From an uncultured Ignavibacteriales bacterium (GTDB lineage: Bacteria > Bacteroidota > Ignavibacteria > T3Sed10-11), in contig CAZBUK010000011.1 in NCBI GenBank assembly GCA_964495085.1, positions 844 through 64,843 of the forward strand: a stretch of 64,000 nucleotides of DNA, written 5' to 3'. The notes beneath the pieces are model-generated. The model saw only the letters and a program-made list of their open reading frames with translations, was not told the DNA's origin and searched no databases. Within the stretch, counting starts at the first letter, position 1; every line of letters begins with the position of its first letter. This document shows, in pieces, positions 2,764 to 50,674 of this stretch. The position numbers and the translations under genes were made by a program.

Positions 2764-2778
2764 CAGCTTCCGATCGAT

Positions 2779-3678
2779 ATGCAACAGACATATATGACAT
2801 ATCTGCAGCCGGATATCATCTCGAGGATCGAGAATCTCGAGCTGCGCGCACGGCTTGTCGTCGAGGGATTTATCGCCGGCTTGCATCGTAGTCCGTATCA
2901 CGGTTTCAGCGTTGAATTTGCCGAGCATCGCCAGTATATGCCCGGCGATGAGATCAAGCATATAGACTGGAAGGTTTACGGCAGGACGGATAGGTACTTC
3001 ATAAAGCAGTATGAAGAGGAGACCAATCTGAAGGCGTACCTCGTCGTCGACTCGAGCAGATCGATGGCATTTCGCAGCGGTTCCAATCCCACGAAACTCG
3101 ATTATGCGGCCTCGATAGCCGCGGCGCTTGCCTATCTGATGATGAAGCAACGGGACGCCGTGGGACTGGGGGTTTTCGACGAAACTGTCAGGACATACCT
3201 GCCTCCCCGATCGACACACTCGTATCTGAAAGTGATCCTCAGGACGCTCGCGGGACTCAGCGGCAATAAGCGGACCGGTACCGCCTCGTCGCTCCACCGA
3301 ATGGCAGAGAGAATAAAGAGGAGAGGGCTCATCATCGTGCTCAGCGACCTCTTCGACGATCCATCGGACGTTATGAGCGCTCTCAAGCATTTCCGGTATA
3401 ACGATAATGAAGTGATTGTGATGCAGATACTCGACCCGGCCGAGCGGAACTTTGCATTCGGCCGGGACGCCGTGTTTAAGGATATGGAGACCGAAGAGAA
3501 GATGACCACCCAGCCGTATCACATCAAGCGGGCATACCAGGATGCGATGGCGCGTTTTCTCGACGCATATAAGCGCCAGTGCCGCGAGAATCGAATCGAC
3601 TATGTTTGTCTTGAGACCTCAACGCCTTTCGATACCGCCCTCTTTCATTATCTGAATAAAAGGAAGCACCTCGGCTGA
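2779..3678 (+). CDS. DUF58 (vWA-like) domain protein
   Basis: N-terminal region RIENLELRARLVVEGFIAGLHRSPYHGFSVEFAEHRQYMPGDEIKHIDWKVYGRTDRYFIKQYEEE is the DUF58 signature. No MoxR ATPase partner lies adjacent. Confidence 0.75.
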   Translation: MQQTYMTYLQPDIISRIENLELRARLVVEGFIAGLHRSPYHGFSVEFAEHRQYMPGDEIKHIDWKVYGRTDRYFIKQYEEETNLKAYLVVDSSRSMAFRSGSNPTKLDYAASIAAALAYLMMKQRDAVGLGVFDETVRTYLPPRSTHSYLKVILRTLAGLSGNKRTGTASSLHRMAERIKRRGLIIVLSDLFDDPSDVMSALKHFRYNDNEVIVMQILDPAERNFAFGRDAVFKDMETEEKMTTQPYHIKRAYQDAMARFLDAYKRQCRENRIDYVCLETSTPFDTALFHYLNKRKHLG

Positions 3679-3769
3679 AATGTGAACGATCAGGGTTATT
3701 TGATTTTCAGACCCTCTTTTATTATTATTAAAGGTTTATAATACGGCGAAATGTTTAAGTACATTATCG

Positions 3770-29120: not shown

Positions 29121-32100
29121 TCATCCGCCTATGAGGATGAATCCACTCCAGAATGCCGGAAATGCCGTAAGATCATTTTGCAGCAGAGAGAGCTTAGCCG
29201 ATCGCAGCGCTGCCGGATAACTTTGTCCGGATAAAATATTCCGGTAGAATTCCACCATCAATTCACCCGTATGGCGGTCGTATACCTTCCAGAGGGAGAC
29301 GACGACATTTCGCGCGCCGGCAAACAGAATCCCGCGCGTGAGTGCGATCAGACCCTCTCCCCGGATCACTTCGCCAGCGCCGCTCTCGCAGCTGCTGAGC
29401 ACGACAAGATCCGCATCGAGATTCAGGTTGAACATTTCAGCGGCGAAAAGAAGTCCGTCTTCTCCGCTCCCTTCATCCTCAGGCCGGGCGAATACGATGC
29501 CGGATAGCCGCGGCTCAGTATCGTGTATGATGCCGTGGCTGGCGACATGGACGATCTGCGTAGCTGCCGCGTGCAATTTGAAGTTCTCTTCGCTCGCCGA
29601 GTCGAACAGGTAGCCGACGGCGGGAAGACCGCGCTGTTGAAAGAGACCGATGATATTTTCGAGTTCGAGGCGGGAGAACGGGAGCGGAGCGTAATTCCCG
29701 GTCTCCGTAAGGATCGACCGGTACTGATCGTCTGCCCGCATAGCGTGTGCCGTAATACCTACTTCTGCATCGTGGACCGCGGCGGCTTCATCTTCAAATA
29801 CGGGTGCAAATCCGACGAACGAAGAAGCATACCGTTCCGCGTCCTTCTGTCGGGTTGTTGAATTTCTATATAGTCTCGCTGCGTAATGGTACGACACCTC
29901 ATACTCCTCGATCAGATATTTCGTCTCTGCAAACCCGGATGTATGGAAACTCGCTTTCGGAAGATCTGCTATGAGGGCTTCGAACGGCAGGTAGAAAAGT
30001 TCACCGTCGGGAATTACAATCAGGCGCTCGATCTTTCCGAGCATCGATTTGACAGGGGTGATGAGATTTCTGTACAGAAACGCGGAGGGTTCAATGAACG
30101 AACCGCGATCGGCTTTCCGCAGACTTGCCGACAAACGCCGGATATTTGCCGATATCTCGCGCATATCTCCGCCCCGAAATACCTGGAGCGATTCGGCGGT
30201 GACGACGAACACCAGAAGCTCATCCGACCCGGCGAAGTAATGTAGAATCGCCGTCCTCGCATCCAATTCATTGCGGATCCGGTCGAGATCAGGCTGCATG
30301 AGCCGGTAGCGGATCTCGTAATATTCCGGATATTCTTTCTCGAATGTCGACAGGAGGAGATCGTACTGCGCCTTCTTTGTGTAATACAGATCGGCATGGT
30401 ACGCAAAGCGATCGTCTTCCGTCGGGCTCTTCACCATCTCCGTTTCATGATACACAATATCGTGCCGGAGATCGGATTCCAAGCCGAGCAGACTGTCGGG
30501 AATTCCCGCGAACGTGCGCGCGTCGAGATCGGCGAACGATTGCAGGAGTACCGACGACTTATTCGCTTCGGATAAGGCAAAAGCATCTGACAGGTAGATC
30601 CGGTCGCCGGTCGCATCATACAGGGCGAGTGCGGTTTCTATGCCTTCTTCGAAAACGAGGTGGCTCTCGCTCGCGATCAGGAGTCTGCTCTCGTCGCGCC
30701 GCAATCCCGTCTGCACCGACCGTATCAGATCGACGGCGGCAGTATACGTCTCAAGAGCCGTATTCAGATAGTGGATCTTCTCCGGATGAGAATCTGAGAT
30801 TGACCGCAGCACAAGGGCCTTCTTCCTGAGCGCGGTCAGCAATCTGTCGGCCGCATTCGTATGGATTTGCCGGGGGATGGCGAATATCGACGTATCGGTG
30901 AAGGACGGAGTGCCGGTGATAATCGCACGTTGATAAAACGGTAACGCACCGTTCGGGTCATTCCTGAGTTGGGACAGGTCGCCGAGATTGTTATATATCC
31001 GCACGAGCAGCCGGGTTTCGTTGTTCCCCGACAGGCGAAGATGATTTACGCCTTTCAGGTATAATTCTTCGGCAAGATCGTATTCGCCTTTTTTGCTGTA
31101 TGCAAATCCAAGATTGTTGTAGATGTAAGCGAACGTAGGATGTTCGGGAGAGAATACCCGTCCATAAATCCCGGATGCTTCCTGGAGGAAATGAATTGCC
31201 CGATCGTACTCACCGATATCGGTATAGTTGACGCCCATGTTCAGATATAGATTTCCCAGGTACTCCGGTCGGCCGGATGAGTTTGCGCCCCGAATCTCGA
31301 ACGCATTGTTATAGGCCTGACCGGCTGAAGTGTAATCCTTCAGATCGCTGTAGATGATCCCCATATGATTATATACCGTGGCGAGCCGGTCGTCGTCGGT
31401 TTCGAGAGAACTCTTATAGATCGATAATGCGCGGAATTGAAGATCGAGCGCGGCAGCGTGGTCGCCGGTATTGTTCCTGTATGCGCCGAGCGATGAATAT
31501 ATTTCGCCGACGCGGGGATGTTCTTCGCCGAAGTAATCACGGTAGATCTCGAGCGTTTTCTCGAGGTATACGATGGCAGAATCGAGTCTGCCGCGTTGAT
31601 TGAAATAGATGCCGATATTGCGGTAGGACTCGCCGGTCATATAATGCGTCGGTCCGAGCGTTACCCGTCGGATATCCGCCGCTTTCCTTGAGTACGCTAT
31701 CGCACTATCGAGATCTCCCATATAATAATGAACCACTCCGATGTTGTTCATCAGCCTTCCCGCAGCGGCGCCGAGCAGTTCGTTGTTGGCACGATATATC
31801 CAATGTGCTTTTCGGTAATAGACGAGAGCGTTATCGGGATCATTCTTATTCCGATAAACGATGCCGAGATTTGTATAGAGCGATGCAAGGAGCGGATGAT
31901 CCGGAGAGAGATCGCTTTCTGCGGCCTCGATCGCCGTGTTTATCTCCGAGAATGCGGAATCCAGTTCTCCCAATTGGATAAAGGCCGAGCTCATCCCGAT
32001 GCGGCTCCGGAGTCCGGCGTCATATGCACCCGTCTCATCGGCGAGCGATTGAGCCCGGCGATACTGAGATATCGATTCCTTATACGCTCCCGCACCGTAT

Positions 32101-32237
32101 AAAGATTGCGCTTCCTCCAGATGTCTGTTCAGGAGGACGGTATCGGCGGGAGAAATGTATTGAACCGCATTCGTGACAGAAGAAACGCCGATACAGAGAG
32201 CGATCAGGAAGAAGTGAAGCGATAAACGGGGACTCAA
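29121..32237 (-). CDS. Exported TPR-repeat + CHAT-domain (caspase-like peptidase) protein
   Basis: Signal peptide, ~450 aa of TPR repeats, C-terminal CHAT domain with the His/Cys dyad (VHVASHGI.. and DLVVLSSCESGAG). Confidence 0.75.
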   Translation of the reverse strand: MSPRLSLHFFLIALCIGVSSVTNAVQYISPADTVLLNRHLEEAQSLYGAGAYKESISQYRRAQSLADETGAYDAGLRSRIGMSSAFIQLGELDSAFSEINTAIEAAESDLSPDHPLLASLYTNLGIVYRNKNDPDNALVYYRKAHWIYRANNELLGAAAGRLMNNIGVVHYYMGDLDSAIAYSRKAADIRRVTLGPTHYMTGESYRNIGIYFNQRGRLDSAIVYLEKTLEIYRDYFGEEHPRVGEIYSSLGAYRNNTGDHAAALDLQFRALSIYKSSLETDDDRLATVYNHMGIIYSDLKDYTSAGQAYNNAFEIRGANSSGRPEYLGNLYLNMGVNYTDIGEYDRAIHFLQEASGIYGRVFSPEHPTFAYIYNNLGFAYSKKGEYDLAEELYLKGVNHLRLSGNNETRLLVRIYNNLGDLSQLRNDPNGALPFYQRAIITGTPSFTDTSIFAIPRQIHTNAADRLLTALRKKALVLRSISDSHPEKIHYLNTALETYTAAVDLIRSVQTGLRRDESRLLIASESHLVFEEGIETALALYDATGDRIYLSDAFALSEANKSSVLLQSFADLDARTFAGIPDSLLGLESDLRHDIVYHETEMVKSPTEDDRFAYHADLYYTKKAQYDLLLSTFEKEYPEYYEIRYRLMQPDLDRIRNELDARTAILHYFAGSDELLVFVVTAESLQVFRGGDMREISANIRRLSASLRKADRGSFIEPSAFLYRNLITPVKSMLGKIERLIVIPDGELFYLPFEALIADLPKASFHTSGFAETKYLIEEYEVSYHYAARLYRNSTTRQKDAERYASSFVGFAPVFEDEAAAVHDAEVGITAHAMRADDQYRSILTETGNYAPLPFSRLELENIIGLFQQRGLPAVGYLFDSASEENFKLHAAATQIVHVASHGIIHDTEPRLSGIVFARPEDEGSGEDGLLFAAEMFNLNLDADLVVLSSCESGAGEVIRGEGLIALTRGILFAGARNVVVSLWKVYDRHTGELMVEFYRNILSGQSYPAALRSAKLSLLQNDLTAFPAFWSGFILIGG

Positions 32238-32741: not shown

Positions 32742-33395
32742 ATGGGTCAGCCAGTAAGTATATTAATCGCCGATGATCACCCCGTGTTTCGGGAAGGATT
32801 GCTGAATATTCTCCAGAAGCGCAGAAACACAGGACCTGTCTATGAATCCGGCAACGGCGAAGAGGCGCTTGCTCTGATTCGTAAACATCATCCGGAAATC
32901 GTTTTGCTCGACATCGATATGCCGGGGTTGAACGGACTCGAAATCGCACGGACAGTTCAATCCGAAAATCTTCCATCCAGGATCATTATGCTGACAATGT
33001 ATAAAGAAGAGGACGTCTTCAACCGGGCGATGGACTATGGCGTATCGGGATTTGTCCTAAAGGAATCTGCCGTGACCGATCTGCTTCAGAGCATCTCGTT
33101 CGTGACAAGCGATAAATATTATGTAAGTCCGGTACTATCGGAATTCCTGATGCACCGCCTGCGAAGAGAGCAGAACTTCAACCTCTCACACCCGTCGCTC
33201 CATTTATTAACCGGTGCTGAGCGACGGATTCTCAAACTGATAGCCCTTATGAAAACGAGCAGGGATATTGCGGATGAGCTGTCCGTGAGTCCCCGCACCG
33301 TCGAAAATCACCGAATGAACATCTGCAATAAGCTCAACATACACGGCAGCCATGCCCTCATGAAATTCGCTCTCGAAAACAAATCATATCTTTGA
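32742..33395 (+). CDS. Two-component response regulator, NarL/LuxR family (REC + HTH_LuxR)
   Basis: VSILIADDHPVF..VLLDIDMPGLNG (phospho-Asp) receiver. C-terminal LuxR HTH (RRILKLIALMKTSRDIADELSVSPRTVENHRMNICNKL). Confidence 0.85.
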   Translation: MGQPVSILIADDHPVFREGLLNILQKRRNTGPVYESGNGEEALALIRKHHPEIVLLDIDMPGLNGLEIARTVQSENLPSRIIMLTMYKEEDVFNRAMDYGVSGFVLKESAVTDLLQSISFVTSDKYYVSPVLSEFLMHRLRREQNFNLSHPSLHLLTGAERRILKLIALMKTSRDIADELSVSPRTVENHRMNICNKLNIHGSHALMKFALENKSYL

Positions 33396-37863: not shown

Positions 37864-40065
37864 ATGAAAAATATCTCGGTAATCCTCATGCTGTTGTCCT
37901 TCGTGCTCGTCGCACAGCCTGTCCCGGCCCAGGTTCCCCCTCATCTCTCGTATCAGGGTATACTCGTAGACGAAACCGGTACCGCAGTCGAAGACGGCAA
38001 TTATGACATTACATTTCGGCTCTATACGGAATCTATCGGATCGGATCCGATATGGACTGAAACGCAGAACGTTTCGGTTATCAAAGGACTGTTTACGGTT
38101 CTCCTCGGAACCGCTACGCCGATCGAGCTTCCCTTTGATGTGCCGTACTTCCTCGGCATTTCGGTCGGTGAAGGATCGGAGCTCACCGGCCGTATTCCGC
38201 TCACCGCGTCGGCCTACAGCCTCCGTTCAAAATCCGTCGACGACGGACAGGTAGTCAAGAGTCTCAATGATATAAAGGATGAGGTAATCCTCGAAGCGGG
38301 AGAAAATATCAGCATTACGCAGCAGGATAATAAAATCACCATCTCGGCTTCGGGAGGATCCGAGGAGGGTACAATCACCGGCGTGGTTGCCGGAGAAGGA
38401 TTGACAGGCGGAGGTACGAGCGGATCGGTAGATATATCGGTCGCCGACTCCGGTATCATCTCGGCAAAATTGGCTGCAGGTTCTGTGACGGCGGAGAAGA
38501 TCGCTGCTGGCGCAGCGGTTAAGAGTCTCAACGATCTCCGCGACGCGGTGATACTCTCCGGCGAGGGGGGCGCCACGATAACGACGCGGGGGGATACGAT
38601 TGTCATCAATGCAGGCAGCGGGGGGGATGGATCGGGGATCGAAGGGATTCAGAATACGAACAATACGCTTGATATTATTAACCCATCGGGTCCGACGACG
38701 ACCATAAATGTGAAGAGCGGTGGAATCGGTACGCAACATATTGCCGACGGCTCTATCACGCAAGAGAAGCTGGCATCCAACGCCATCAACGACGGTGATT
38801 GGATCATCGATGGAGACAATATGAGCTCCGGAGTAAGCGGATTTGTCGGTATAGGGCGAACCAATCGCTTGACCGGGTTGGAGGTATTCGGTATACGAGC
38901 ACCGTCTGCTGAAAATACCTGGGGAGGTATGTATATTGAAACATTACAAGCGACGGGAAGACCCTTCTACGGCTACGCGACGAACAACACTGCGATTATG
39001 TGGCATGAGTATAACAGCTCTGTCAATCAATGGCAACTGAACACCGGATCGGGTGTTCGGATTGCCGTCGAAAGATCGACCGGAAATATAGGGATGGGTA
39101 CGACAACTCCCTTGGAGAGGTTGGACATTGCCGGAGCCGTTCGAATCGGCACGACATCATCCTCGAACGCCGGAACTATCAGGTGGTCCGGAGCCGATTT
39201 TGAAGGACGCAAAGGGAGTCAATGGGTTTCGTTGACAGGCGTCTCCAGCTGGAATACATCGGGAAATAACATCAACTACACAACCGGAAATGTCGGCATC
39301 GGCACCACTACACCGGCATATCTTGCACATCTCCGCAGTTCCTCTCCTTCACTCATGCTGGAAAACACGGGTACTTCGGCGTCATTTGTCAGATTCCGCC
39401 GGTCAAACGACGGAGCGAACGACAATTATCTGGCTTTGGGCTCAAGCGGGCAGATGATTATGCGCGTCGGCGGTACGGACAGGATCACGGTTCTCAATGA
39501 CGGAAGGGTCGGTATCGGCACCGGCAGTCCCGAAACCATGTTTCAGATCCGGAATTCAGGCAGCGATATAGCGTACTCTCTGAAAGCGTCGAATTCCTGG
39601 ACTGCGCGAATACAGCAGGATGCCTCCAGCAATCTGACGATATGGAACGGCGGCCTGGAACGTATTCGCCTCCGGGCAAACGGGAATGTCGGTATAGGTA
39701 ATGATAATCCCTCCAACAGGCTCCAGGTGAGCGGGGATATGCAGGTAAGCGGAAAGGTGAAGCGTGAGTCGACCGGAAATAACAATGTTGTGCCGATCTG
39801 TTACGGTCAAATTAATTCTGCCGGTACTATTCAGAACGGTTCCGGCAACTTCACGGTGAATAGAACCGGTACCGGTGTATACCAAATCAATATTTCCGGT
39901 GAAAACGTTCTCTTTTCGAACTATACCGTGGTAGTGACAGCTATCGGTTCGTCTCCCGTCGTGGCAACATGGAGCAGTGCGAGTGGAAATTTAGTGGTTT
40001 ATATTCACAACATGTTCAGTTTTCGTACCGATAATCATTTTTCATTTACCGTCTTTAAACCCTGA
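37864..40065 (+). CDS. Exported paralogue 3 of the tail-fibre-like family (long; phage tail-fibre-type motifs)
   Basis: Signal peptide + HLSYQGILVDETGTAVEDGNY..DDGQVVKSLNDIKDEVILEAGENISIT. Downstream motifs ISAKLAAGSVTAEKIAAGAAV, HIADGSITQEKLASNAI and four G(N/R)(V/I)G(I/M)GT..P..L.V copies. Distinct ~90-aa C-terminal domain. Confidence 0.7.
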   Translation: MKNISVILMLLSFVLVAQPVPAQVPPHLSYQGILVDETGTAVEDGNYDITFRLYTESIGSDPIWTETQNVSVIKGLFTVLLGTATPIELPFDVPYFLGISVGEGSELTGRIPLTASAYSLRSKSVDDGQVVKSLNDIKDEVILEAGENISITQQDNKITISASGGSEEGTITGVVAGEGLTGGGTSGSVDISVADSGIISAKLAAGSVTAEKIAAGAAVKSLNDLRDAVILSGEGGATITTRGDTIVINAGSGGDGSGIEGIQNTNNTLDIINPSGPTTTINVKSGGIGTQHIADGSITQEKLASNAINDGDWIIDGDNMSSGVSGFVGIGRTNRLTGLEVFGIRAPSAENTWGGMYIETLQATGRPFYGYATNNTAIMWHEYNSSVNQWQLNTGSGVRIAVERSTGNIGMGTTTPLERLDIAGAVRIGTTSSSNAGTIRWSGADFEGRKGSQWVSLTGVSSWNTSGNNINYTTGNVGIGTTTPAYLAHLRSSSPSLMLENTGTSASFVRFRRSNDGANDNYLALGSSGQMIMRVGGTDRITVLNDGRVGIGTGSPETMFQIRNSGSDIAYSLKASNSWTARIQQDASSNLTIWNGGLERIRLRANGNVGIGNDNPSNRLQVSGDMQVSGKVKRESTGNNNVVPICYGQINSAGTIQNGSGNFTVNRTGTGVYQINISGENVLFSNYTVVVTAIGSSPVVATWSSASGNLVVYIHNMFSFRTDNHFSFTVFKP

Positions 40066-40471
40066 AGACCGATCCATCGATTCGAGAGCAATTATGTCAT
40101 CGTCTTCCTCCAGTTTGCGGTTCTGCTCGACTAGATAGAAATATTGCTGTACGGGGAGGAGAAATAGAGAAAAAGGTTGTCCTACACATAGCTTACTCGA
40201 TTCAGGTTATCGAGCGTTTGTTAACTGAAATATAGGAGGTGAAATCATACAACCGGCGTACCGGAATCCCATGGCTCTATAAATAACGGAACTTTGGGTA
40301 CATTTTTCCGGTTTGTACGGGAATGATTGCGGAAGGTACGGCGACGTCTGAACATTTCTGCGTCTGCATCGGTATATGCATACAAGGAAAGTTAAGCCTC
40401 AACACAACAGGTCCTGCCGCCGCCAAACAAACCCGCCACATTCCCGTCACCTTACTATCGGAAGGTACTAT

Positions 40472-41935
40472 ATGAAGCACGTCCTTATGGTCGTCGCCTT
40501 GTCTGTCTGTTTTTGCATTGCCGAATCATCCGCCGGTACACCGGCAAAGATAACATACCAGGGTATGCTCATGGCTCAGAATGGCTTGCCGGTCCCAGAC
40601 AACAATTACAATATTACGTTCAGTCTCTATGCCGCGCCGGATGCGGTCGAGCCTGTATGGTCCGAAACCCAATCCGTGACGGTCGTGAAAGGTTTATTCA
40701 ACGCCATACTCGGAAGCAGTGTTCCTTTCTCGGAGGAGTTCGATCAGGCATGTTGGCTCGGTCTGAAGCTCGGCGATGAGCCGGAAATGACTCCACGGAT
40801 AGAATTCACCTCCGTCGCGTATTCATTGAAAAGCCGGACGGTTGATGACGGTGCGATTGTCACTTCGAAGATCGCTAACTCCGCTATAACGGCGGAAAAG
40901 TTAGCTGTTGTTGAAGGGCCGAGTTCGGTAAGCCAGGTGCTCACCTGGAACGGGACTGGTCTTTCCTGGCAGGTTCCTCCCGGGGAGGGCGGATTACTGC
41001 TTCCGTATTCAGGGACGGCAAATCAGGGGGGTGCTGCTTTCGAGGTCAGCAATACGAACAGTGATGCGCTTCGCGGATCTACACAGTTCGGAAATGGTGT
41101 ATTCGGTTTCAGCACGGGAGGCGGAAACGGAATAAGCGGGTATAGTGAGACCGGGTTCGGTGTTATCGGATTTACAAACACCGGAATCTCCGGGATCTAC
41201 GGTGAGTCAAAGATAAACGGCGGCGCTGGTATATGGGGAAAAAATACGGCCGGTGCGGGTTCTTCAGGTATCTGGGGAGAAAGCCCCGCTGGAATGGGCG
41301 TAAGAGGGAACAGCACGTCCGGTACGGGTGTATATGGGAGTAGTAATTCCGGTTATGGAGTACGGGGACTTGTTTCGCAGAGCGGCACCGGAGTCTATGG
41401 GGAGAATACAAGCAACAGTGCAGGCGCGGGAGTGCAGGGGAGGGCAGACCACGGCAGCTCCGTCGGCGTACTCGGAATGAGCACGGCCGGAACCGGAGTC
41501 AGGGGATCGAGCAGCAGCAGTACCGGCGTTTCCGGGTCGTCTGTATCCGGCGTCGGTGTCCATGGACAGGGCCCCGTCGCAATGAAAGCAGAAGGGAATA
41601 CACTCCAGGATATCGGCAGCGGGGGATGGATGAAAGCGATGCTTCTCGTGAGGGATATAGGATTGAATGCACCTTACATTGAAAGGTGTTATAACGGGGT
41701 CACCGGAGCTACCGAAAGCAATTGTGGATTTAGTATCAGCCAGCCCGGGGGTGCAGGTCCCGTAAAAATAACCGCTCCGTTCAAAGTAGTCGATCGGTTC
41801 TTTTCGGTAACCTTGCTTCAGTCTGCGGTTCACGATATTGTTCCCAGCATTTTTTTCGACCAGGGAGATCTTTTCGGCAATACCGTGGTGGTCGCGACGG
41901 GTACGGATGCAAGCTTCTATCTGCTGATATACTGA
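40472..41935 (+). CDS. Exported paralogue 4 of the tail-fibre-like family (divergent N-domain; ~20 Gly-rich 11-12-aa repeats)
   Basis: The ORF is open from 40376, but Met33 (MKHVLMVVALSVCFCIAESSA, GGAAGG RBS 6 nt upstream) gives a signal peptide followed by KITYQGMLMAQNGLPVPDNNYNITFSLY.. homologous to the other three N-domains. Long G.GV.G.S repeat tract. Confidence 0.65.
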   Translation: MKHVLMVVALSVCFCIAESSAGTPAKITYQGMLMAQNGLPVPDNNYNITFSLYAAPDAVEPVWSETQSVTVVKGLFNAILGSSVPFSEEFDQACWLGLKLGDEPEMTPRIEFTSVAYSLKSRTVDDGAIVTSKIANSAITAEKLAVVEGPSSVSQVLTWNGTGLSWQVPPGEGGLLLPYSGTANQGGAAFEVSNTNSDALRGSTQFGNGVFGFSTGGGNGISGYSETGFGVIGFTNTGISGIYGESKINGGAGIWGKNTAGAGSSGIWGESPAGMGVRGNSTSGTGVYGSSNSGYGVRGLVSQSGTGVYGENTSNSAGAGVQGRADHGSSVGVLGMSTAGTGVRGSSSSSTGVSGSSVSGVGVHGQGPVAMKAEGNTLQDIGSGGWMKAMLLVRDIGLNAPYIERCYNGVTGATESNCGFSISQPGGAGPVKITAPFKVVDRFFSVTLLQSAVHDIVPSIFFDQGDLFGNTVVVATGTDASFYLLIY

Positions 41936-42015: not shown

Positions 42016-42546
42016 ATGAAAAAAATATGGTTTGCAGTATTGAGCTTTACAGCTCTGGTGGCGCTCCAATCTTCTGTACTCGCACAGTATACTATATTGT
42101 ATAGTACCTTCGGTTCGGGCGGCGGCAGGACAGAAGGCTCATCCGTCTCCCTCCAGGGTACAATAGGACAATCGGTAGCAGGTTTTACGGAGAACGAATC
42201 GCATGCTGCAGGATCGGGATTCTGGTATGTTGTCCAATCGTCGATTACCACCGACGTAGAGCGTCTGCACGAAATGCTTCCACTCGAGTTTCGTATGGAT
42301 CAGAACTATCCGAATCCGTTCAATCCTTCAACGACCATCCGTTTCGCTCTCCCGCTGGAAGAGCACGTTACATTGGTCGTTTACGATCTTATCGGACGGA
42401 AAATCGCTATGCTTGTCGATGAACGGATGACGGCGGGAGAATATTCGGTAGTTTTCGATGCCGCGGGTGTCGCAAGCGGTTTCTATATATACAGAATACA
42501 GGCGGGATCGCATGTTACAACCCGGCGCATGATCCTCCTGAAATAG
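42016..42546 (+). CDS. Small T9SS-sorted protein (hypothetical ~70-aa mature domain + type-A CTD)
   Basis: Signal peptide. The C-terminus NYPNPFNPSTTIRFALPLEEHVTLVVYDLIGRKIAMLVDE..GFYIYRIQAG..RRMILLK is a T9SS CTD. Confidence 0.7.
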   Translation: MKKIWFAVLSFTALVALQSSVLAQYTILYSTFGSGGGRTEGSSVSLQGTIGQSVAGFTENESHAAGSGFWYVVQSSITTDVERLHEMLPLEFRMDQNYPNPFNPSTTIRFALPLEEHVTLVVYDLIGRKIAMLVDERMTAGEYSVVFDAAGVASGFYIYRIQAGSHVTTRRMILLK

Positions 42547-42629
42547 AGCCGGTACCGCCTGTCCGATTCCGAGACCGGCGGTTGATCCGGCGTTCGGACA
42601 TCTTTTCAATATACTGCGGAATTTCTCAC

Positions 42630-42983
42630 ATGAAAAATTTATTTCCGATGTTATTGTTTTTATCAGTTTCATTTCTTATGGTAACCTGTTCCCCCCGAAA
42701 GGAATCATCTATCGAACAGCCCGGGAAAATGGATCCATCGCTGCGTCTGCTGATATCCCGTTACGAACATGATCGGAGCGACGAAGTTATCGAGGTGCTC
42801 ATTGAACTCCACCGCGATCCTGACGGCGAAGCGCAGATACTGTTCCGGGAGTACAATCTCGAACTCGACGGCATGGAGGGAAAAATCCTTGCCGCGCGCG
42901 GCAGAGTTTCCGATATACGGCGAATAACTGCCTCCTCGCTCGTGAAACATATCGCCTTGAGCCAGAAAAGACAACCGTTATAA
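42630..42983 (+). CDS. Free-standing subtilase pro-region-like protein (putative propeptide/I9-type inhibitor or chaperone), lipoprotein-like signal
   Basis: Start taken at ATG 42630 (MKNLFPMLLFLSVSFLMVTCS signal; the ORF is open from 42582). The mature part aligns to the N-terminal pro-region of the downstream S8 protease: GKMDPSLRLLIS vs GKIDASLRLVMS, and ..VKHIALSQKRQPL vs ..RFIELAARRKPL. Confidence 0.6.
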   Translation: MKNLFPMLLFLSVSFLMVTCSPRKESSIEQPGKMDPSLRLLISRYEHDRSDEVIEVLIELHRDPDGEAQILFREYNLELDGMEGKILAARGRVSDIRRITASSLVKHIALSQKRQPL

Positions 42984-43015
42984 ATTATTTCAATATTCAT
43001 AAAGGGTATAATCAA

Positions 43016-46000
43016 ATGGGTCTTTTAAGAAGCTTTCTCCGGAGAATATCGCGAATTTCGGGCGGTGGAGCGATTGCGGCCGTATGCTTAATCGCTGCCG
43101 GTACCTCGTTCGGTCAGACCAATGAAAAACTGGTCAGGGCATTGAGATCGGGTATGTTTTCCGGTGAATTTCAGATCAACCAACAGGCATATTCTCAGGA
43201 AGGGTTGCTCCGGCCGCAGGCTCACGGGAAAATCGACGCTTCGCTTCGGCTGGTCATGTCGCAGAACCACAGGATGATGAAGGCACGCCCGGGCGATTCC
43301 TACTTACAAGGTATCAGCCCGTATGCATTATCGGTCTCAGGTGACGATGATATACGCGCGGATGTTTTTATCCGAACAGAAGCCGGATTTTCTGCCGCTG
43401 TGCTGACCTCGCTCGGCGCCACGAGGATCGTGGAAGCGGGAGGCATTGTCAGTGCATCCGTACCTCTCGGCGGCATCGGGGCGTTGGCGGAGGATCCGAA
43501 CGTCCGGTTTATCGAACTGGCAGCCCGTCGAAAGCCCCTCAATGATGCCGGGAGGACCGATATCCGGGCGGATCTCGTCCACCAGGGGTTCAACCTCCCT
43601 GCCGCGTATAAGGGCGAGGGAGTGATTGTCGGCGTGCTCGACAGCGGCATCGATTTCACTCATCCGGATTTCTCGGATGAGAACGGAACACGAATACAAC
43701 ATCTGCTTGAATACACTACGACCGGTCAACTCGAGTGGTCGAAGACTCAGATCGATACGGACCCTACCTCGGTAACTCAGGGCGATCTCGACGACGGGGG
43801 AGGCCATGGAACGCATGTCGCAGGAAGCGCAACAGGCGGCGGCAAGCTTAACTCGATCTACACGGGCGTCGCTCCGAACGCGGATATAATCTTTGTGAAG
43901 GGAATGATCGACGGCGGCTTCAGCGATAACGCAGTCTTCGGCGGTTGCCAGTATATATTTGAAAAGGCTGATGCACTGGGTAAACCGGCGGTTATCAACC
44001 TGAGTCTCGGTAGTAATTTCGGACCGATCGACGGCTCGAGCTTATATGAGCAGGCATTATCGAACCTGACCGGACCCGGAAAGATCATCGTAGCGGCCGC
44101 CGGCAACGAGGGTTTTGATTTGATTCACGCAGGCGCTGTCTTACCGGCCTCGACGCAGAACGTCACGCTTCTCATAAGCGATAATCCGTCTCAGCTTTTT
44201 ATCAATATGTGGTACACGCCAGGGGTGATCTCTGATGTCGCGATCGGGGCTTTCGCTATCGATGAATCGGACGAACCCATCTATCTGGGGAACACCTCTT
44301 TCGTACCAGTCGGTTCGTTCATGAATCACACGCCGTTAACATCTGATGAAATCATACTCGGACAAATCGGAATCGACGCTCAGACAACGGCGGATCCCAG
44401 AAACGGCGACGGAAATATTATATTCGAGATCATCGGTGATCCGGATCAGGGAGTCGATATCTCGGAAATAATCTGGGTAGTGATCTATAACTCATCGTCA
44501 TCAGGCCGGTTCGATATGTGGTCATTCGGCGGAGAATTCTGGCCGGTAGTCGAAGGAATCCCGGGCGTGAACGAGATACCCGGCGATTCGCACAGCACGA
44601 TCGGTACACCGGCATCGGCCCACAAGATCATCGCAGTCGGTTCGTACGTGACGAAGACCACGTTTACCAATATCGATAATCAGATGCTCCAGTGGCGGAA
44701 TCCGGATCCGACACGACAGACCAACGATCTGGTGGTTCCGTCGATCGGACAGAAATCGTACTTCAGCAGCATCGGACCTACTCGGGACGGACGAATCGCG
44801 CCCGATATTTCGGCCCCCGGCGAGTTGATATTCTCTCCGCTTTCATCTCAGCTTGCTGAGGGAACGGGGTATCAACGTATACTCGTGGCTGAGGGGGGAA
44901 ATTATATCGGTTCTCAGGGGACCAGCATGGCATCTCCGCATGTAGCCGGAGTCGTCGCGCTCATGCTTCAGGTTCGGCCTGATCTCACATACGAGCAGAC
45001 TCTGGATATACTCCGGGAAACCGCCCGGGTCGATTCGTGGACCGGCTCGGTTCCGAACCACTCCTTCGGCGCAGGGAAGATCGACGCACATGCTGCGGTT
45101 ATGAATGCTCTCGGACTGAACGGCGGACCGGGTACGCCGACTACACTCAGATATTTCGATCCCGAAAGCGAACAGCGAACCTGGATTATCGATACCACAT
45201 TACCAATCGACAGCGGTTTCGTCTTCGGAACGAACAGATATTCGGATATGTCCAAAGCCACCGCATTTTCGCTCCCCGGCGGGGAGACCGAAGGAAGGAT
45301 TTCTGAAGTTAAAATCTGGTTCTCATATCGGAGAGACGGATTAACCGATCAGACATACAGCGTGGAGGTCTTTAACGGTTCGGCATCGTCCGGTCCTACC
45401 GGTGTGACTTTGTCGACGAAGGAATTCATGCTCGCAAACGTGAATGCGGATGCGGATCTACAGACGCCCGAGCAGGCGACGGTGCATACGTTCGATATGC
45501 CTGTTTCTGTGGGATCGGAATTTTTCGTCTCGGTTAATTTCGGCAGTTACGGAAGCGACGATTTCGGGAACGCCGGCATAGCGGCCACCGATCAGCTGGG
45601 GAGCAGGGTGCCCGAAGTATGGGAGCAATGGAGCGATGGAGAATGGCATAACCTCTCCGATGCATGGTTCGGCTCGGGAGCCGCTCCGGGTACGGGCATC
45701 GACGGATGGCATATGTGGATGGAAGTCGTTCTCGAAGGTCCGGTGAGTGTCCCGAATGACGGCTATACACTTCCGGTTTCTATTTCGCTCGAACAGAATT
45801 ATCCCAATCCGTTTAATCCGTCCACGGCTATCAGGTATTCGATTCCCTCGCCTTCGCGGGTGTCGCTCCGGGTATACGATATACTCGGACGGGTGGTGGC
45901 GGACCTGATCAACGGGGATGTTGAAGCCGGGACGCACACCGTCCACTTCGACGGCTCGTCTGTGAGCAGCGGATTATATTTCTACCGGCTCGAGACGGAT

Positions 46001-46039
46001 TCCAAGACCATCGTCAGACATATGATGCTGGTTAAGTAA
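43016..46039 (+). CDS. Subtilisin-like serine peptidase (S8 family) with N-terminal pro-region and T9SS C-terminal sorting domain
   Basis: Catalytic triad motifs VGVLDSGID (Asp), GHGTHVAGSA (His), GTSMASPHVAGV (Ser). The C-terminus NYPNPFNPSTAIRYSIP..LRVYDILGRVV..GLYFYRLE..RHMMLVK is a T9SS CTD. Confidence 0.88.
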   Translation: MGLLRSFLRRISRISGGGAIAAVCLIAAGTSFGQTNEKLVRALRSGMFSGEFQINQQAYSQEGLLRPQAHGKIDASLRLVMSQNHRMMKARPGDSYLQGISPYALSVSGDDDIRADVFIRTEAGFSAAVLTSLGATRIVEAGGIVSASVPLGGIGALAEDPNVRFIELAARRKPLNDAGRTDIRADLVHQGFNLPAAYKGEGVIVGVLDSGIDFTHPDFSDENGTRIQHLLEYTTTGQLEWSKTQIDTDPTSVTQGDLDDGGGHGTHVAGSATGGGKLNSIYTGVAPNADIIFVKGMIDGGFSDNAVFGGCQYIFEKADALGKPAVINLSLGSNFGPIDGSSLYEQALSNLTGPGKIIVAAAGNEGFDLIHAGAVLPASTQNVTLLISDNPSQLFINMWYTPGVISDVAIGAFAIDESDEPIYLGNTSFVPVGSFMNHTPLTSDEIILGQIGIDAQTTADPRNGDGNIIFEIIGDPDQGVDISEIIWVVIYNSSSSGRFDMWSFGGEFWPVVEGIPGVNEIPGDSHSTIGTPASAHKIIAVGSYVTKTTFTNIDNQMLQWRNPDPTRQTNDLVVPSIGQKSYFSSIGPTRDGRIAPDISAPGELIFSPLSSQLAEGTGYQRILVAEGGNYIGSQGTSMASPHVAGVVALMLQVRPDLTYEQTLDILRETARVDSWTGSVPNHSFGAGKIDAHAAVMNALGLNGGPGTPTTLRYFDPESEQRTWIIDTTLPIDSGFVFGTNRYSDMSKATAFSLPGGETEGRISEVKIWFSYRRDGLTDQTYSVEVFNGSASSGPTGVTLSTKEFMLANVNADADLQTPEQATVHTFDMPVSVGSEFFVSVNFGSYGSDDFGNAGIAATDQLGSRVPEVWEQWSDGEWHNLSDAWFGSGAAPGTGIDGWHMWMEVVLEGPVSVPNDGYTLPVSISLEQNYPNPFNPSTAIRYSIPSPSRVSLRVYDILGRVVADLINGDVEAGTHTVHFDGSSVSSGLYFYRLETDSKTIVRHMMLVK

Positions 46040-46058: not shown

Positions 46059-47684
46059 ATGAATCGTCGTACAATCATCCTGTCTCGAAGTCGATTGCTG
46101 CGTACCGTTCTTACCGGCTTCCTGATGTCTGCGTCGGTCACGGCATCGTCGCAGGTTTTTATTCCGGATTTTCCCGCGAACGACGCGGAGCACAACACCA
46201 ACGGTCTCTGGCGTCCGAGAATTGCCGCCGCAGCGGACGGGAACTTCTCGATCGCATGGGAGGATTACAGCGACCGGCCGGGGATACACCCCAACAGCAC
46301 CGGCCGGTCACAGATTGCAGTACGGCGTTTCTTGCCGGATGGTAGTCCGCATGGTCCGCTCAGTTTTTTCCAGGGAGAGAGCAGCACTCTTTCGCTCTGG
46401 CTGTTCGACTTCCTCGAGCACGCGGAGATCAAATATCTCGGCGACGGAACGCTCGTACTGTTGATGCAGCATACCGGCAGATTGTCGATCGGAACCGACG
46501 ATGTGGCATCGTCGGAAATAACGCTGGGTGCGATCGATCCGGAAGGTCAGATCATCAAATTGTCTCAATTCGGCTCGAACCTACAATACCCGTTGATATT
46601 TACCTCGTCGAGCCGCCAGTATAATCCGAGGCTCGCACTCACGCCCGACAATGTCATAGTCGCCGCTCTCGAAGAATCCTCCTACGACAGCGAATTCCGG
46701 AACGCCGCGTTTCGGGCGCTCGACGCATCGTTAAACGAGCTCATTACCCGGGAGATTCCGCACAGCGACGGTGTCGGAGAGGCGCCGCATATACTGGCGG
46801 ATGTCGCAACCAACGGACAATTGTTCGCCGTTGTTTGGCAGGACGGAAGGTTCAGCGACCAGTGGAGTGTCGGGATTCAGTTCTATACGGACGACGGGAT
46901 TCTGGGTGCGAATCGCAGGATAAACGAAACCGAGCCCGGAACCGCATATGCTCTCCGGCCGAGCGTCGCGATGAATGGGTCCGGGCGCTCGGTCGCGGTC
47001 TGGTTCGACTCTCGAAACGGCAATCAGCTCTTCGGGCAGATTTTCGATTCCGCAGGTGAACCTGCCGGCGGTAACTTCCAGATATCGGATACACCGGCAG
47101 GGGGAGATATATATTTCCGACCTGAAGTAACGATTCGCGACGACGGCAGCTTCATGGTAGTCTGGACTGACAGCACCTCCGTTCAACACGCATTCCGTGC
47201 ACGCGGAAGACAATTCGACCCTCACGGAATACCCCGAGGCGATCCGTTCCTCATTCCGGATATAGACGTATATTCCGGTTACCCGCACGTTGCCACCGAC
47301 GGCGCTGCATATTACTGCGTCTGGCTTGACGATCGACTCGGCATGAACCACGTTAATGCGTATGCGAAGAAAGTCGACGCGGTTATCACCTATGCTGCGA
47401 ACGAGCGATCCACGATGCCCGATTCTTTCGTACTCCATCCTCCTTATCCCAATCCCTTCAATCCGGAGACCACGGTCACGTTCGAGATCCCCGAAGAGGG
47501 CCGCGTCAGGTTATCCGTCCACGATCTTCTCGGGAGGAACGTAATGGATCTCACCGATTCGTATTATCAGGCGGGATTGCATTCGGTATTGTTCTCCGGC
47601 TCGAGACTCTCAAGCGGGATCTATGTGCTGCGGCTGGAATTCGGACCCTTCGCCGAAACAAGATCCGTGTTTTTGATCAAGTAG
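46059..47684 (+). CDS. T9SS-sorted protein with six ~55-aa beta-propeller-like repeats (hypothetical)
   Basis: Signal peptide. Repeated P.vA..g.G.f.vvW.D..(G).lfGq.F pattern (e.g. GNFSIAWEDYS, QLFAVVWQDGR, RSVAVWFDSRNGNQLFGQIFD, SFMVVWTDST, AYYCVWLDDR). The C-terminus PYPNPFNPETTVTFEIPEEGRVRLSVHDLLGRNV..GIYVLRLE is a T9SS CTD. Confidence 0.7.
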   Translation: MNRRTIILSRSRLLRTVLTGFLMSASVTASSQVFIPDFPANDAEHNTNGLWRPRIAAAADGNFSIAWEDYSDRPGIHPNSTGRSQIAVRRFLPDGSPHGPLSFFQGESSTLSLWLFDFLEHAEIKYLGDGTLVLLMQHTGRLSIGTDDVASSEITLGAIDPEGQIIKLSQFGSNLQYPLIFTSSSRQYNPRLALTPDNVIVAALEESSYDSEFRNAAFRALDASLNELITREIPHSDGVGEAPHILADVATNGQLFAVVWQDGRFSDQWSVGIQFYTDDGILGANRRINETEPGTAYALRPSVAMNGSGRSVAVWFDSRNGNQLFGQIFDSAGEPAGGNFQISDTPAGGDIYFRPEVTIRDDGSFMVVWTDSTSVQHAFRARGRQFDPHGIPRGDPFLIPDIDVYSGYPHVATDGAAYYCVWLDDRLGMNHVNAYAKKVDAVITYAANERSTMPDSFVLHPPYPNPFNPETTVTFEIPEEGRVRLSVHDLLGRNVMDLTDSYYQAGLHSVLFSGSRLSSGIYVLRLEFGPFAETRSVFLIK

Positions 47685-47752: not shown

Positions 47753-50674
47753 TTGAAACGTAACTTCCCGATCGGAGCGGCTCTGCTGCTCGTCTTCATC
47801 ATCGTCAGGATGGAGGGCCAGACATATCCGTTCAAACTGTTTACCGTGGATGAGGGATTACCTCAATCAACCGTATATGCAGTATTTCAGGATTCGAGGG
47901 GGTATATCTGGACCGGTACGCAGGGCGGACTATCGCGATTCGACGGACTCGGCTTCACCACATACACGACCGCTGACGGATTGACGAACGATCGGGTTCT
48001 CCACATTTCCGAAGACCGGTACGGTCATATTTGGATCGGGACGAACGACGGCGTCGCCCGATTCGATGGAAACGGCTATGAAGGATATTCCAACGGCATC
48101 GGATCCGTCTTCTCCATTCTGTCGATCGAATCGGGAGCAGTACTGATCGGCTCGGCGGAGGGAGTTGCGGTACTTCCGCACGGCGTTCTCGATACAATCA
48201 TCTTCATACCGGAAATATCTTCTCCCGTTTATTCGCTCTACGGACTAAATGACGGACGAATCCTTGCAGGAACAGGACATGGATTGTTCGGAATAACTAT
48301 CGACGATGGGTTCTCGGTATCGATCGATACACTACAGGTGTCCGGACCGGTAATGTGCATAGCGGAGGACGGCGAGGGAAGGATCTGGGCGGGTACCGAC
48401 GGCGAAGGCGTTGCGGTACTCGAAGGAGACCGGGTGAGCAGACTTACCGTCGAAGACGGTCTTGGAAATAATAAGATCTTTTCGATGCTTGTCGATACTT
48501 CGGACAGGGTATGGGTGGGCTCGTACGGCAGAGGAGCGAATGAAATCGTCGGAAAAGCGGTTGTCGGAAGTTACCTGACGGCGCAGGGGCTCCCGAGCAA
48601 TGTCGTAAGATCGATCATACAGGATCGCGAAGGGAATATCTGGTTTGCTACGTACGGCGGGCTGGCGATGCTCAGACATACCGGGTTGAATTACTTCGAT
48701 ACCTCGCAGGGATTCACAAACGCCATAGTTATGGCGATAATGCGCGACAGGTCGGCAACCCTTTGGATCGGCACGTATGGCGGTGGAATCACCAGGCTGC
48801 ATGGCGATGCGGCGATACCGTTTAAAACCGAACATGGACTTTCGCACAACGTCGTGCGGTCGATGCTCGAGGACAGTAAGGGTCGGATCTGGATCGGCAC
48901 ACATCGCGGAGTGACCATGCTGGACGGTGAATCGATGCGTCGCTATACAGTCCGCGACGGGCTCCCGGGGGATGTTATTCTCTCCATCGCAGAGGACCGG
49001 GGGGGAAGGATCTGGTTCGGAACGTTCGGAACGGGTTTGGCATATCTTGCGGGAGGTACATTTTCATCTTTCACGGTTAAAAACGGGCTCGGGCATAACA
49101 CGGTTCGCACGATTCGGGAAGATGCCCTCGGCAGGATATGGATCGGTACCGACAACGGTTTGACGAAATTTGAAGACGGTTCCTTTACGAATTATACCGC
49201 CGAACATGGACTCATCCACAATACGATCCGTTCCCTTTCGACCGGCCGCGACGGTTCGCTATGGATTGCTACCGACGGCGGAGGCGTCGCGATACTGCGG
49301 GATGATAAGTTTTCATCACTGACCGTTCAGGACGGACTTACGAATAATGTCTGTTTCCTGATCATACATGACTGGGATGACAAGGTCTGGGTCGGAACGA
49401 ACAGGGGACTCAATAAAATAAGTTTCGATCCCTCCGGGAAGCTGCCGGCGGACATAACGACGATTTCGATGCGCGACGGACTTCCATCGAACGAATTCAA
49501 CACGGGCGCCGCACATCTCGACGATGACGGAACCCTCTGGTTTGGCACCGTTGCCGGTCTTGTGAAGGTCGGCCGGGATTTCACAGCCGGCACCTCTATT
49601 CCCCCGGCTATCCAGTTGACGAAAGTGAAGGTATTCGAACAAGATCAGGTCCTCGATGCTCCGCTCAGATTCTCCCACGATGAGAATTATCTTAAATTCG
49701 AATATGCGGGATTATTCTATTCCTCCCCCGAAGAGGTCGAGTATAGATACAGATTGTCGGGCCTCGATACGGATTGGCAGCTCTCATCGGTTCGCAGCGT
49801 CCAGTATACCTCATTGCCGCCGGGCCGCTATACGTTCGAGGTGACTGCACGGAGCGTAAGGAGCGAATGGAATCCCAGTCCTGCGGTTGTGCACTTTCGT
49901 ATTGTACCCCCGTATTGGTCAACATGGTGGTTCCGGATAATTTCGCTGACCTTGATCGTAGCGATGATCGGGGTTCTATATACCCGGCGTATACGGAAAT
50001 TAACGAGAGAACGGCTTGAACGCGAGGAGTTTTCCAGACGGTTGATTGATTCCCAGGAGCAGGAACGGAAACGGATAGCGGGAGAACTTCACGACAGCCT
50101 GGGACAGAATCTGCTTATCATAAAGAATAGAGCGCTGATGGGGCTGCACCCGCCCGCCTCCGAGAATGCTCCGGGTCAGCTAGAATATATCTCCGATATT
50201 GCGTCGCAGGCGATACACGAAGTGAGGGAAATATCGTACAACTTGCATCCGTATCAGCTTGAGCGGCTCGGTCTCAAAGAGGCAATAGATTCAGCGACCC
50301 GGAAGATTGCATCGGCATCCCGGATCAGATTTCAGACTTCGCTCGATGAATTGAACGGGAAATTTTCGCGTGAAGTTGATCTGAATATCTATCGGATCGT
50401 GCAGGAATGCTTGAACAACATAGTGAAGCATTCCGGCGCGGATGAAGTGACGATGACTGTGAATATGGCAGGCGGTTTGCTCGAGATCCGGATATCGGAT
50501 AACGGGTGTGGATTTTCCAAGAGGAAGTACGCCGCATTGCCGCACGGGGACGGCACGGGATTGGGACTAAAGAGTATCGCGGAACGGGTAAGGATCATTG
50601 ATGCCGCGTTCGATATTCAATCCGAGCCGGATAAGGGGACGACGGTGACGGTGAGTATTCCCGTTCGACCATGA
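47753..50674 (+). CDS. Sensor histidine kinase with periplasmic two-component-regulator propeller (Reg_prop) repeats, Y_Y_Y domain, TM helix and HisKA_3 + HATPase_c
   Basis: Signal peptide. Many G.L.RFDG..F..YT..DGL repeats. TM (WWFRIISLTLIVAMIGVLY). H-box ELHDSLGQNL (HisKA_3, the family that partners NarL/LuxR regulators). ATP-binding GTGLGLKSIAERV. Confidence 0.85.
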   Translation: MKRNFPIGAALLLVFIIVRMEGQTYPFKLFTVDEGLPQSTVYAVFQDSRGYIWTGTQGGLSRFDGLGFTTYTTADGLTNDRVLHISEDRYGHIWIGTNDGVARFDGNGYEGYSNGIGSVFSILSIESGAVLIGSAEGVAVLPHGVLDTIIFIPEISSPVYSLYGLNDGRILAGTGHGLFGITIDDGFSVSIDTLQVSGPVMCIAEDGEGRIWAGTDGEGVAVLEGDRVSRLTVEDGLGNNKIFSMLVDTSDRVWVGSYGRGANEIVGKAVVGSYLTAQGLPSNVVRSIIQDREGNIWFATYGGLAMLRHTGLNYFDTSQGFTNAIVMAIMRDRSATLWIGTYGGGITRLHGDAAIPFKTEHGLSHNVVRSMLEDSKGRIWIGTHRGVTMLDGESMRRYTVRDGLPGDVILSIAEDRGGRIWFGTFGTGLAYLAGGTFSSFTVKNGLGHNTVRTIREDALGRIWIGTDNGLTKFEDGSFTNYTAEHGLIHNTIRSLSTGRDGSLWIATDGGGVAILRDDKFSSLTVQDGLTNNVCFLIIHDWDDKVWVGTNRGLNKISFDPSGKLPADITTISMRDGLPSNEFNTGAAHLDDDGTLWFGTVAGLVKVGRDFTAGTSIPPAIQLTKVKVFEQDQVLDAPLRFSHDENYLKFEYAGLFYSSPEEVEYRYRLSGLDTDWQLSSVRSVQYTSLPPGRYTFEVTARSVRSEWNPSPAVVHFRIVPPYWSTWWFRIISLTLIVAMIGVLYTRRIRKLTRERLEREEFSRRLIDSQEQERKRIAGELHDSLGQNLLIIKNRALMGLHPPASENAPGQLEYISDIASQAIHEVREISYNLHPYQLERLGLKEAIDSATRKIASASRIRFQTSLDELNGKFSREVDLNIYRIVQECLNNIVKHSGADEVTMTVNMAGGLLEIRISDNGCGFSKRKYAALPHGDGTGLGLKSIAERVRIIDAAFDIQSEPDKGTTVTVSIPVRP

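Follow-up and report, generated by a model that had tools for sequence, protein, structure and literature searches.

The locus

We describe a pair of adjacent genes in a 64,000-nucleotide stretch of DNA, hereafter the window, from an uncultured Ignavibacteriales bacterium (contig CAZBUK010000011.1, positions 844 to 64,843). A small open reading frame (ORF), whose product resembles a subtilase prodomain preceded by a lipoprotein-type signal, lies directly upstream of a gene for a family S8 subtilase (here, S8) that carries a sorting domain of the type IX secretion system (T9SS). The window holds a single S8 gene and a single small gene, as established with a hidden Markov model (HMM) of the S8 pro-region and a scan of the locus. 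The features of the pair, in window coordinates, are as follows.

42630–42983, + strand: small ORF for a putative prodomain-like lipoprotein of 117 amino acids; ATG at 42630, stop codon at 42981–42983
42630–42689, + strand: signal peptide up to Cys20 (MKNLFPMLLFLSVSFLMVTC), with a putative lipobox; M1 and C20 are invariant in A1, the alignment of small proteins described below
42720–42965, + strand: prodomain-like core of the small protein, residues 31–112, delimited by AlphaFold2 (AF2) secondary structure and aligned to S8 residues 67–170
42966–42980, + strand: C-terminal tail of the small protein, KRQPL, placed by the hhalign and MAFFT alignments
42984–43015, + strand: intergenic spacer of 32 nucleotides (nt) between the small ORF and S8, from the ORF ends
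43016–46039, + strand: S8 subtilase of 1007 amino acids, T9SS-secreted and Csp-like, with a central β-rich insert; Pfam Peptidase_S8 and Por_Secre_tail
43214–43540, + strand: the pro-region of S8 itself, residues 67–175, homologous to the small protein (hhalign, pro-region HMM and MAFFT alignment)
43601–45115, + strand: S8 catalytic domain, residues ~196–700, from the invariant columns of the S8 homologue alignment
45800–46021, + strand: T9SS C-terminal sorting domain of S8, residues 929–1002; Por_Secre_tail E 8.9e-9, TIGR04183 E 3.6e-11

The database gene call for the small ORF (P0001) has 101 amino acids and starts at Met17 (MVTC...), so that the signal peptide is lost. We favour the ATG at 42630, because a hydrophobic N-terminus and its Cys are conserved across the family; this is also the start that had been given, correctly, in a preliminary description made from the sequence of the window. 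The present analysis thus flags a gene that is truncated and unnamed under current annotation. The 32-nt spacer contains no terminator-like site in a terminator scan, and the small gene and S8 are therefore likely to be co-transcribed as a two-gene unit. The sole terminator-like hairpin on the + strand, a weak one, lies at 42586–42598, between the preceding T9SS-tail gene and the start of the small ORF; little weight attaches to the promoter and terminator scans, which returned no more sites than expected from shuffled sequence and are uninformative.

Homology between the small protein and the S8 pro-region

From this pair of sequences taken alone, homology is only weakly and marginally suggested. 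BLASTP of the small protein against S8 yielded one 13-residue segment (GKMDPSLRLLISR in one, GKIDASLRLVMSQ in the other; E 0.021 for a single comparison), and a Smith-Waterman alignment with S8 residues 1–200 had a z of ~3: of 1000 shuffles, 16 attained its score, and one did so when gaps were made cheaper. The preliminary description had called the direct alignment convincing; by these measures it is not significant. We therefore base the assignment on relatives of both proteins. When 1.84 billion representative proteins were searched exhaustively, we recovered 11 further small proteins (103–130 amino acids; E 7e-13 to 7e-4), which together with the window protein make up the 12-sequence alignment A1. 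When A1 was compared by hhalign with the pre-catalytic regions of ~97 S8 homologues (99 trimmed, the longest dropped), residues 28–117 of the small protein were matched to S8 residues 67–175 with a probability of 98.9 % and an E-value of 1.3e-17 over 87 columns. The score was 98.5 in the main run and 90.8 under the settings of a matched control, in which 30 column shuffles of A1 scored 8–16.6, far below the real alignment. Furthermore, an HMM built from the S8 pro-region only finds all five syntenic small proteins (hmmsearch, E 4.6e-11 to 7.8e-5). As judged from these profiles, the small ORF encodes a stand-alone paralogue of the pro-region of S8, a conclusion that is unambiguous once relatives are added.

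The homology to S8 residues ~70–180 that had been proposed is thus borne out, and each of the three pairs of motifs on which the proposal drew is aligned to its counterpart by hhalign. The segment that is exclusive to the protease is also real; it had been put at 28 residues, and both hhalign and MAFFT place it after the first helix as an insert of 22–26 residues.

Identity is 0.30 among the small proteins, 0.25 among the pro-regions and 0.20 between the two groups. Identity of a small protein to its cognate pro-region ranges from 0.15 to 0.24, against a mean of 0.19–0.22 to non-cognate pro-regions. Since the small proteins are no closer to their cognate pro-region than to others, the duplication is old, and the two lineages have been inherited together; a recent duplication is rejected on the same comparison. 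The best explanation of these sequence relationships is that the small gene arose through an old duplication of a subtilase pro-region and was retained beside the protease.

A conserved and hitherto unannotated family

With members from related loci included, the family comprises 17 sequences of ~30 % mutual identity. Three positions are invariant, namely the signal-peptide Cys, K33 and L38; conservation is at least 82 % at V56-L57-I58, I86, G91, L110-S111 and R114 (82 % for R114, 88 % for both L110 and S111). The persistence of 17 homologues at such low identity with invariant Cys20, K33 and L38 argues for selection on a secreted and probably lipidated protein. This small-protein family is real and conserved, and it has hitherto gone unannotated: the window protein has no match in Pfam at E ≤ 1 and belongs to no NCBIfam family, none of the 12 A1 members matches PF05922 (Inhibitor_I9) at E ≤ 5, and a single A1 member gives a weak match to Tk-SP_N-pro (E 0.078). 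A sequence-profile search of the PDB with the small protein found no family; a word-indexed search found only the protein itself, and the same kind of search with S8 residues 1–210 returned nothing at E ≤ 1e-3.

The N-terminus of the small protein has a basic n-region and a hydrophobic core that leads to Cys20. In every family member the N-terminus is hydrophobic and leads up to a Cys, mostly as G-C: the Cys is invariant in 17/17 and position -1 is G in 76 %. This conserved lipoprotein-type signal agrees with the lipoprotein-like character ascribed to the protein in the preliminary description. The lipobox of the window member, MVTC, departs from the pattern [LVI][ASTVI][GAS]C at -1 (T) and at -3 (M), and lipidation of this particular protein is, from its sequence, probable rather than certain. 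If lipidated, the protein might face the periplasm or lie on the cell surface, both of which are compatible with the sequence. The earlier proposal that it controls the protease before T9SS export is unsupported, because the compartment cannot be read from sequence; potempins, the lipoprotein inhibitors to which we return below, act on the outer surface (PMC9890683).

Predicted prodomain fold and the C-terminal end

An AF2 model of the small protein, built on A1, has a mean predicted local distance difference test score (pLDDT) of 84.6, with values of 89–96 per 10-residue block across residues 31–110. Its elements are a helix (36–48), a β-strand (53–60), an α-helix (66–74), two β-strands (78–83 and 86–92), an α-helix (93–99) and a final β-strand (105–110). 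The predicted topology is the classical one of subtilase prodomains, that is, an I9-like fold. In a Foldseek search of the PDB with this model, the strongest matches are nearly all subtilase prodomains (probability 0.98–1.00): the CspB prodomain (4i0w_A, E 4e-3), ProN-Tk-SP (3afg), the furin-bound PC1/3 prodomain (9fid), prosubtilisin (3cnq_P, 1spb_P and 1scj_B) and the Tk-subtilisin propeptide (2z58_B), and further matches are to EpiP, fervidolysin and the cucumisin propeptide. ORF2 (3wqb_B), the chaperone of the protease ASP, ranks 16 in this list (probability 0.85). The earlier suggestion of a paralogue with an I9-type fold is therefore upheld by prediction, even as the sequence model of Inhibitor_I9, noted above, does not recognise the protein.

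Another observation concerns where the small protein stops. Its terminus, ..SQKRQPL-stop, is aligned to the junction between prodomain and catalytic domain in S8 (..ARRKPL175|ND), and nearly all of the 17 members end 0–4 residues past the position that corresponds to this junction. The tail, basic-x-x-Leu, resembles the junction of the partner: KRQPL vs RRKPL, and IRKPL vs RRKPL and RRKQL. A protein with a prodomain fold that ends at the P1-equivalent residue resembles a pre-cleaved prodomain, and on these grounds we propose a membrane-anchored prodomain mimic: the small protein would be held by a lipid anchor, would block the active site and would shield the producer from its own protease. 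We put the probability of this reading at roughly 0.55.

Pairing of the small gene with S8

Among the 11 informative loci, defined as those that hold a small-protein gene, nine have that gene directly upstream of an S8 orthologue (the window, L001, L002, L004, L005, L008, L010/11, L012 and L017). Across these paired loci S8 identity to the window is 49–65 %, falling to 39 % in one distant locus. Four of the orthologous loci have spacers of 29–41 nt; in another the spacer measures ~3 nt, and in a further one 177 nt. Four of the paired loci, each with the small gene directly upstream, read as follows.

L001: S8 62 % identical to window; spacer 29 nt
L002: S8 65 % identical to window; spacer 31 nt
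L004: S8 55 % identical to window; spacer 177 nt
L005: S8 49 % identical to window; spacer 41 nt

Elsewhere, the small gene P0124 stands 36 nt upstream of a T9SS S8 of 1005 amino acids, and the truncated ORFs downstream of P0126 and P0129, both on short contigs, are recognised by the S8 pro-region HMM (E 7.5e-23 and ~1e-5, respectively). The distant locus, L008, came from a contig scan with S8 that returned two loci; it belongs to a distant metagenome-assembled genome (MAG) and has two tandem homologues of the small lipoprotein immediately upstream of S8, at 2697–3089 and 3390–3767, the second of which ends ~3 nt before the S8 start. The S8 ORF of this locus is shorter (764 amino acids), and its small-protein tails, ..KNNTIR and ..KKKEIQ, are not of the R-x-P-L type.

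These data bear on the idea that the small gene is a decaying, functionless remnant of a partial gene duplication, which might draw on the absence of a Pfam or NCBIfam family and on a database gene call that omits the signal peptide. We find it hardly credible, and reject it on the conservation pattern of the 17-member family: the homologues are intact at ~30 % identity, with Cys, K33 and L38 invariant and with length and end point conserved; the AF2 core is confident; and synteny extends across distant S8 lineages and includes a tandem pair.

Viewed from the side of the protease, 2/8 S8 loci are without a small gene: no homologue was found within 3 kb on either side of S8 in L003 (58 % identical) or L006/L007 (40 %). 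These two loci matter for an alternative in which the small protein is a trans-acting foldase that, like ORF2, would aid the folding or refolding of S8 in the periplasm or after export, inhibition being a transient by-product. The prodomain fold, the presence of the ORF2 structure 3wqb_B among the Foldseek matches and the tight pairing of the small gene with S8 would all be expected of such a foldase, and the case of CspB indicates that prodomains can chaperone in trans (PMC3567191). On the other hand, S8 keeps a complete and conserved pro-region whereas ASP, the client of ORF2, has none (PMC5638518), and a lipid anchor is unexpected for a folding catalyst, which itself has to be released. Because S8 retains its pro-region and two orthologous loci do without the small gene, an obligatory foldase role is disfavoured; folding of S8 is probably not dependent on the small protein, and we consider a foldase unlikely.

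The partner protease

S8 matches Peptidase_S8 (E 1.2e-48, in two stretches) and Por_Secre_tail (E 8.9e-9) in Pfam. It has the catalytic residues D209, H264, N364 and S637, all of them invariant among homologues. What splits the Peptidase_S8 match is the β-rich insert, at residues ~370–545; an insertion of this kind inside the catalytic domain is common to S8 and the Csp proteases. The closest PDB relatives, by both sequence and fold, are the clostridial proteins CspB, CspA and CspC (4i0w_D/B by fold), and this kinship to spore-germination proteases is unexpected for a secreted enzyme with a T9SS sorting domain. The nearest named relatives of S8 come from MAGs of candidate division KSB1 and Bacteroidota. 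The native pro-enzyme was likewise modelled with AF2 (pLDDT 87.1), and residues 113–168 of the model have the same order of strands and helices as the model of the small protein.

Neighbouring genes

The pair is flanked by two genes for proteins with T9SS tails, one upstream (42016–42546; ~176–184 amino acids) and one downstream (46059–47684; ~529–541 amino acids); a Reg_prop/Y_Y_Y/HisKA_3 sensor kinase comes next (47753–50674), and a LuxR-type response regulator lies upstream (32742–33395). L001 has the same gene order, L002 shares part of it, and L010 preserves it up to the limit of the locus. Two adjacent ORFs, 37864–40065 (733 amino acids) and 40376–41935 (519 amino acids), have no Pfam match and share a similar N-terminal segment (..YQG-L......G..V.D.NY.ITF.LY......P.W.E.Q.V.V.KGLF...LG..), by which they look paralogous; homologous loci carry proteins with a Peptidase_S74 domain at the matching position. 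Also of note is a protein of 1037 amino acids with TPR and CHAT domains (CHAT E 7.8e-61), whose gene precedes the cluster and runs in the opposite direction (29121–32237, − strand).

That the pair is surrounded by other T9SS cargo genes, in a cluster that is conserved, fits with yet another role for the small protein, namely as a surface tether or latency adaptor: its prodomain-like interface would mainly retain the protease at the surface of the cell, or pass it on in the course of T9SS processing. The conserved lipoprotein signal is in keeping with such a role, as is the sorting domain of the partner, which implies attachment to the surface or release. However, T9SS cargo is already anchored through its sorting domain, as is established (PMC9890683), and nothing separates a tether from an inhibitor, since a protein bound by way of the prodomain interface, its tail in the cleft, would be inhibitory in any case. 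We regard a role that is mainly one of tethering as quite unlikely.

A proposed mode of action and the observations that weigh against it

After autoprocessing, the C-terminal P4–P1 residues of a subtilase prodomain remain in the substrate cleft, where they inhibit the enzyme until the prodomain is degraded. By analogy with such cleaved prodomains, with CspB and with Aeromonas ORF2, we hypothesize that the β-sheet face of the small protein packs onto the catalytic domain of S8, such that its free tail, ..SQKRQPL-COOH, would sit in the S4–S1 subsites in the manner of a cleavage product and block the active site. Anchored in an envelope membrane, the small protein could then hold a protease that has shed its own prodomain in a latent state near the cell. 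This latency would protect the envelope proteins of the producer, as potempins do with respect to the KLIKK peptidases of Tannerella.

Several observations count against this proposal. The lipobox of the window member is non-canonical, as described above. The E-values of the Foldseek matches are modest (4e-3 to 0.4), though the list of matches is consistent. In the pro-enzyme model, the junction at residues 171–176 has a pLDDT below 50, and prodomain-containing templates superpose on the model with a root-mean-square deviation of ~23 Å; the model gives no confirmation of canonical docking, even for the prodomain in cis. Some tails are unlike the junction of the partner: IREHRE in L004, RERPGSNS in L005, and NNTIR and KKEIQ in L008. 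Finally, two family members have no S8 beside them: P0132 (L014, 4001–4381) lies between a 2515-residue β-helix T9SS protein and a 714-residue Peptidase_S9/PD40 protein, and may be a re-targeted or orphan copy, and P0131 is on a contig of 2.6 kb that carries no S8.

The last two cases could also be taken to mean that the small protein is a general secreted or lipoprotein inhibitor of other subtilases, be they those of competitors or of the producer, in which event it is not dedicated to S8 and its adjacency reflects ancestry only. The identity values given earlier, which are no higher for cognate than for non-cognate pro-regions, would suit this idea, and there is a precedent in PotA, a potempin that also inhibits a host matrix metalloproteinase (PMC9890683). 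Against it stand the 9/11 informative loci that keep the small gene directly upstream, mostly with spacers of ~3–41 nt, over an S8 identity range of 39–65 %, and the presence in the 64-kb window of one S8 and one small gene. We hold a general inhibitor to be decidedly unlikely, and continue to prefer an anchored prodomain mimic that is directed at the adjacent S8.

To our knowledge, how exporters of T9SS proteases spare their own envelope is poorly understood, and the potempins of one oral pathogen are the sole case that has been worked out. If our proposal is true, it extends to bacteria the stand-alone propeptide-like inhibitors that have so far been characterised in fungi, plants and apicomplexans, and it provides, ready-made, a specific inhibitor for a clade of environmental, Csp-like subtilases that has yet to be characterised. 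A second, unrelated family of lipoproteins at the same position would suggest that a lipoprotein inhibitor upstream of a T9SS protease is a general design; in this family, the sequence itself reveals the origin, namely the prodomain of the protease. For specialists in proteases and in the T9SS, we consider the result neat and directly testable rather than startling.

Comparison with known systems

In gene layout, the closest systems are the potempins of the Tannerella forsythia potempin/KLIKK system: lipoproteins of 98–132 residues that are encoded directly upstream of T9SS peptidases and co-transcribed with them, and that act as specific inhibitors on the outer surface and protect the producer's outer membrane; among them is PotC, an inhibitor of the S8 peptidase mirolase (PMC9890683). 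The window pair shares the upstream position and the size (117 amino acids, 32-nt spacer); a lipobox is present in potempins, vs MVTC here. The proteins themselves differ: potempins are β-barrels (an OB fold, or eight-stranded up-and-down) with a reactive-centre loop, whereas the small protein is an α/β prodomain paralogue that would be expected to act through its C-terminal tail. Potempin chains are absent from the Foldseek top 50 and from the PDB profile search at E ≤ 10.

The separately encoded ORF2 of Aeromonas sobria is likewise bacterial, with its S8 partner, the serine protease ASP, adjacent in the genome. Its C-terminal residue lies at the catalytic centre of ASP, which it inhibits, and ASP, having no propeptide of its own, needs ORF2 for folding (PMC5638518). 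In contrast to the small gene, which is upstream of S8, the ORF2 gene is downstream of the protease, and S8 keeps a full pro-region where ASP is without one; ORF2 is not described as a lipoprotein in the papers on the ASP pair that we consulted.

CspB offers the best structural matches, its prodomain (4i0w_A) to the small protein and 4i0w_D/B to the S8 catalytic domain with its insert. The CspB prodomain stays bound, blocks the active site with its P3–P1 residues and works in trans (PMC3567191). CspB is a Firmicutes spore protein that is inhibited by its own prodomain after cleavage; in the window, the inhibitor would be an additional, separately encoded and membrane-anchored copy beside a T9SS enzyme.

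Closest in predicted fold and in presumed mechanism are the stand-alone propeptide-like inhibitors of MEROPS family I9, namely Pleurotus POIA1, yeast PBI2, Arabidopsis SPI-1, Toxoplasma MIC5 (TgMIC5) and Plasmodium SUB1-ProM, which act through a prodomain interface and a C-terminal tail, and for which convergence has been raised as a possible origin (PMC6993865). SUB1-ProM is, like the small protein, encoded next to subtilase genes. The examples named in that work are all eukaryotic and soluble, whereas the small protein is bacterial, bears a signal of the lipoprotein type and is apparently encoded in one operon with a T9SS protease. By sequence it does not belong to Pfam Inhibitor_I9; its demonstrable homology is to the prodomain of its own partner (E 1.3e-17), as opposed to the possible convergent mimicry of the I9 examples.

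Our literature search found no description of a bacterial lipoprotein paralogue of a prodomain beside a T9SS subtilase; its coverage is incomplete, and databases may contain bacterial single-domain I9-like proteins that are still uncharacterised. We would place at slightly under an even chance the broader view that these proteins form the first family of stand-alone, lipid-anchored inhibitors of the prodomain-mimic type to be recognised in prokaryotes, derived from duplication of a subtilase prodomain and fixed as a two-gene module for self-protection or latency of Csp-like T9SS subtilases: a route to a potempin-like system, separate from that of the potempins, with an origin traceable by sequence. 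What appears to distinguish the small protein from the known stand-alone prodomain-like inhibitors is the combination of a bacterial source, a probable lipid anchor and a likely operon with a Csp-like T9SS subtilase.

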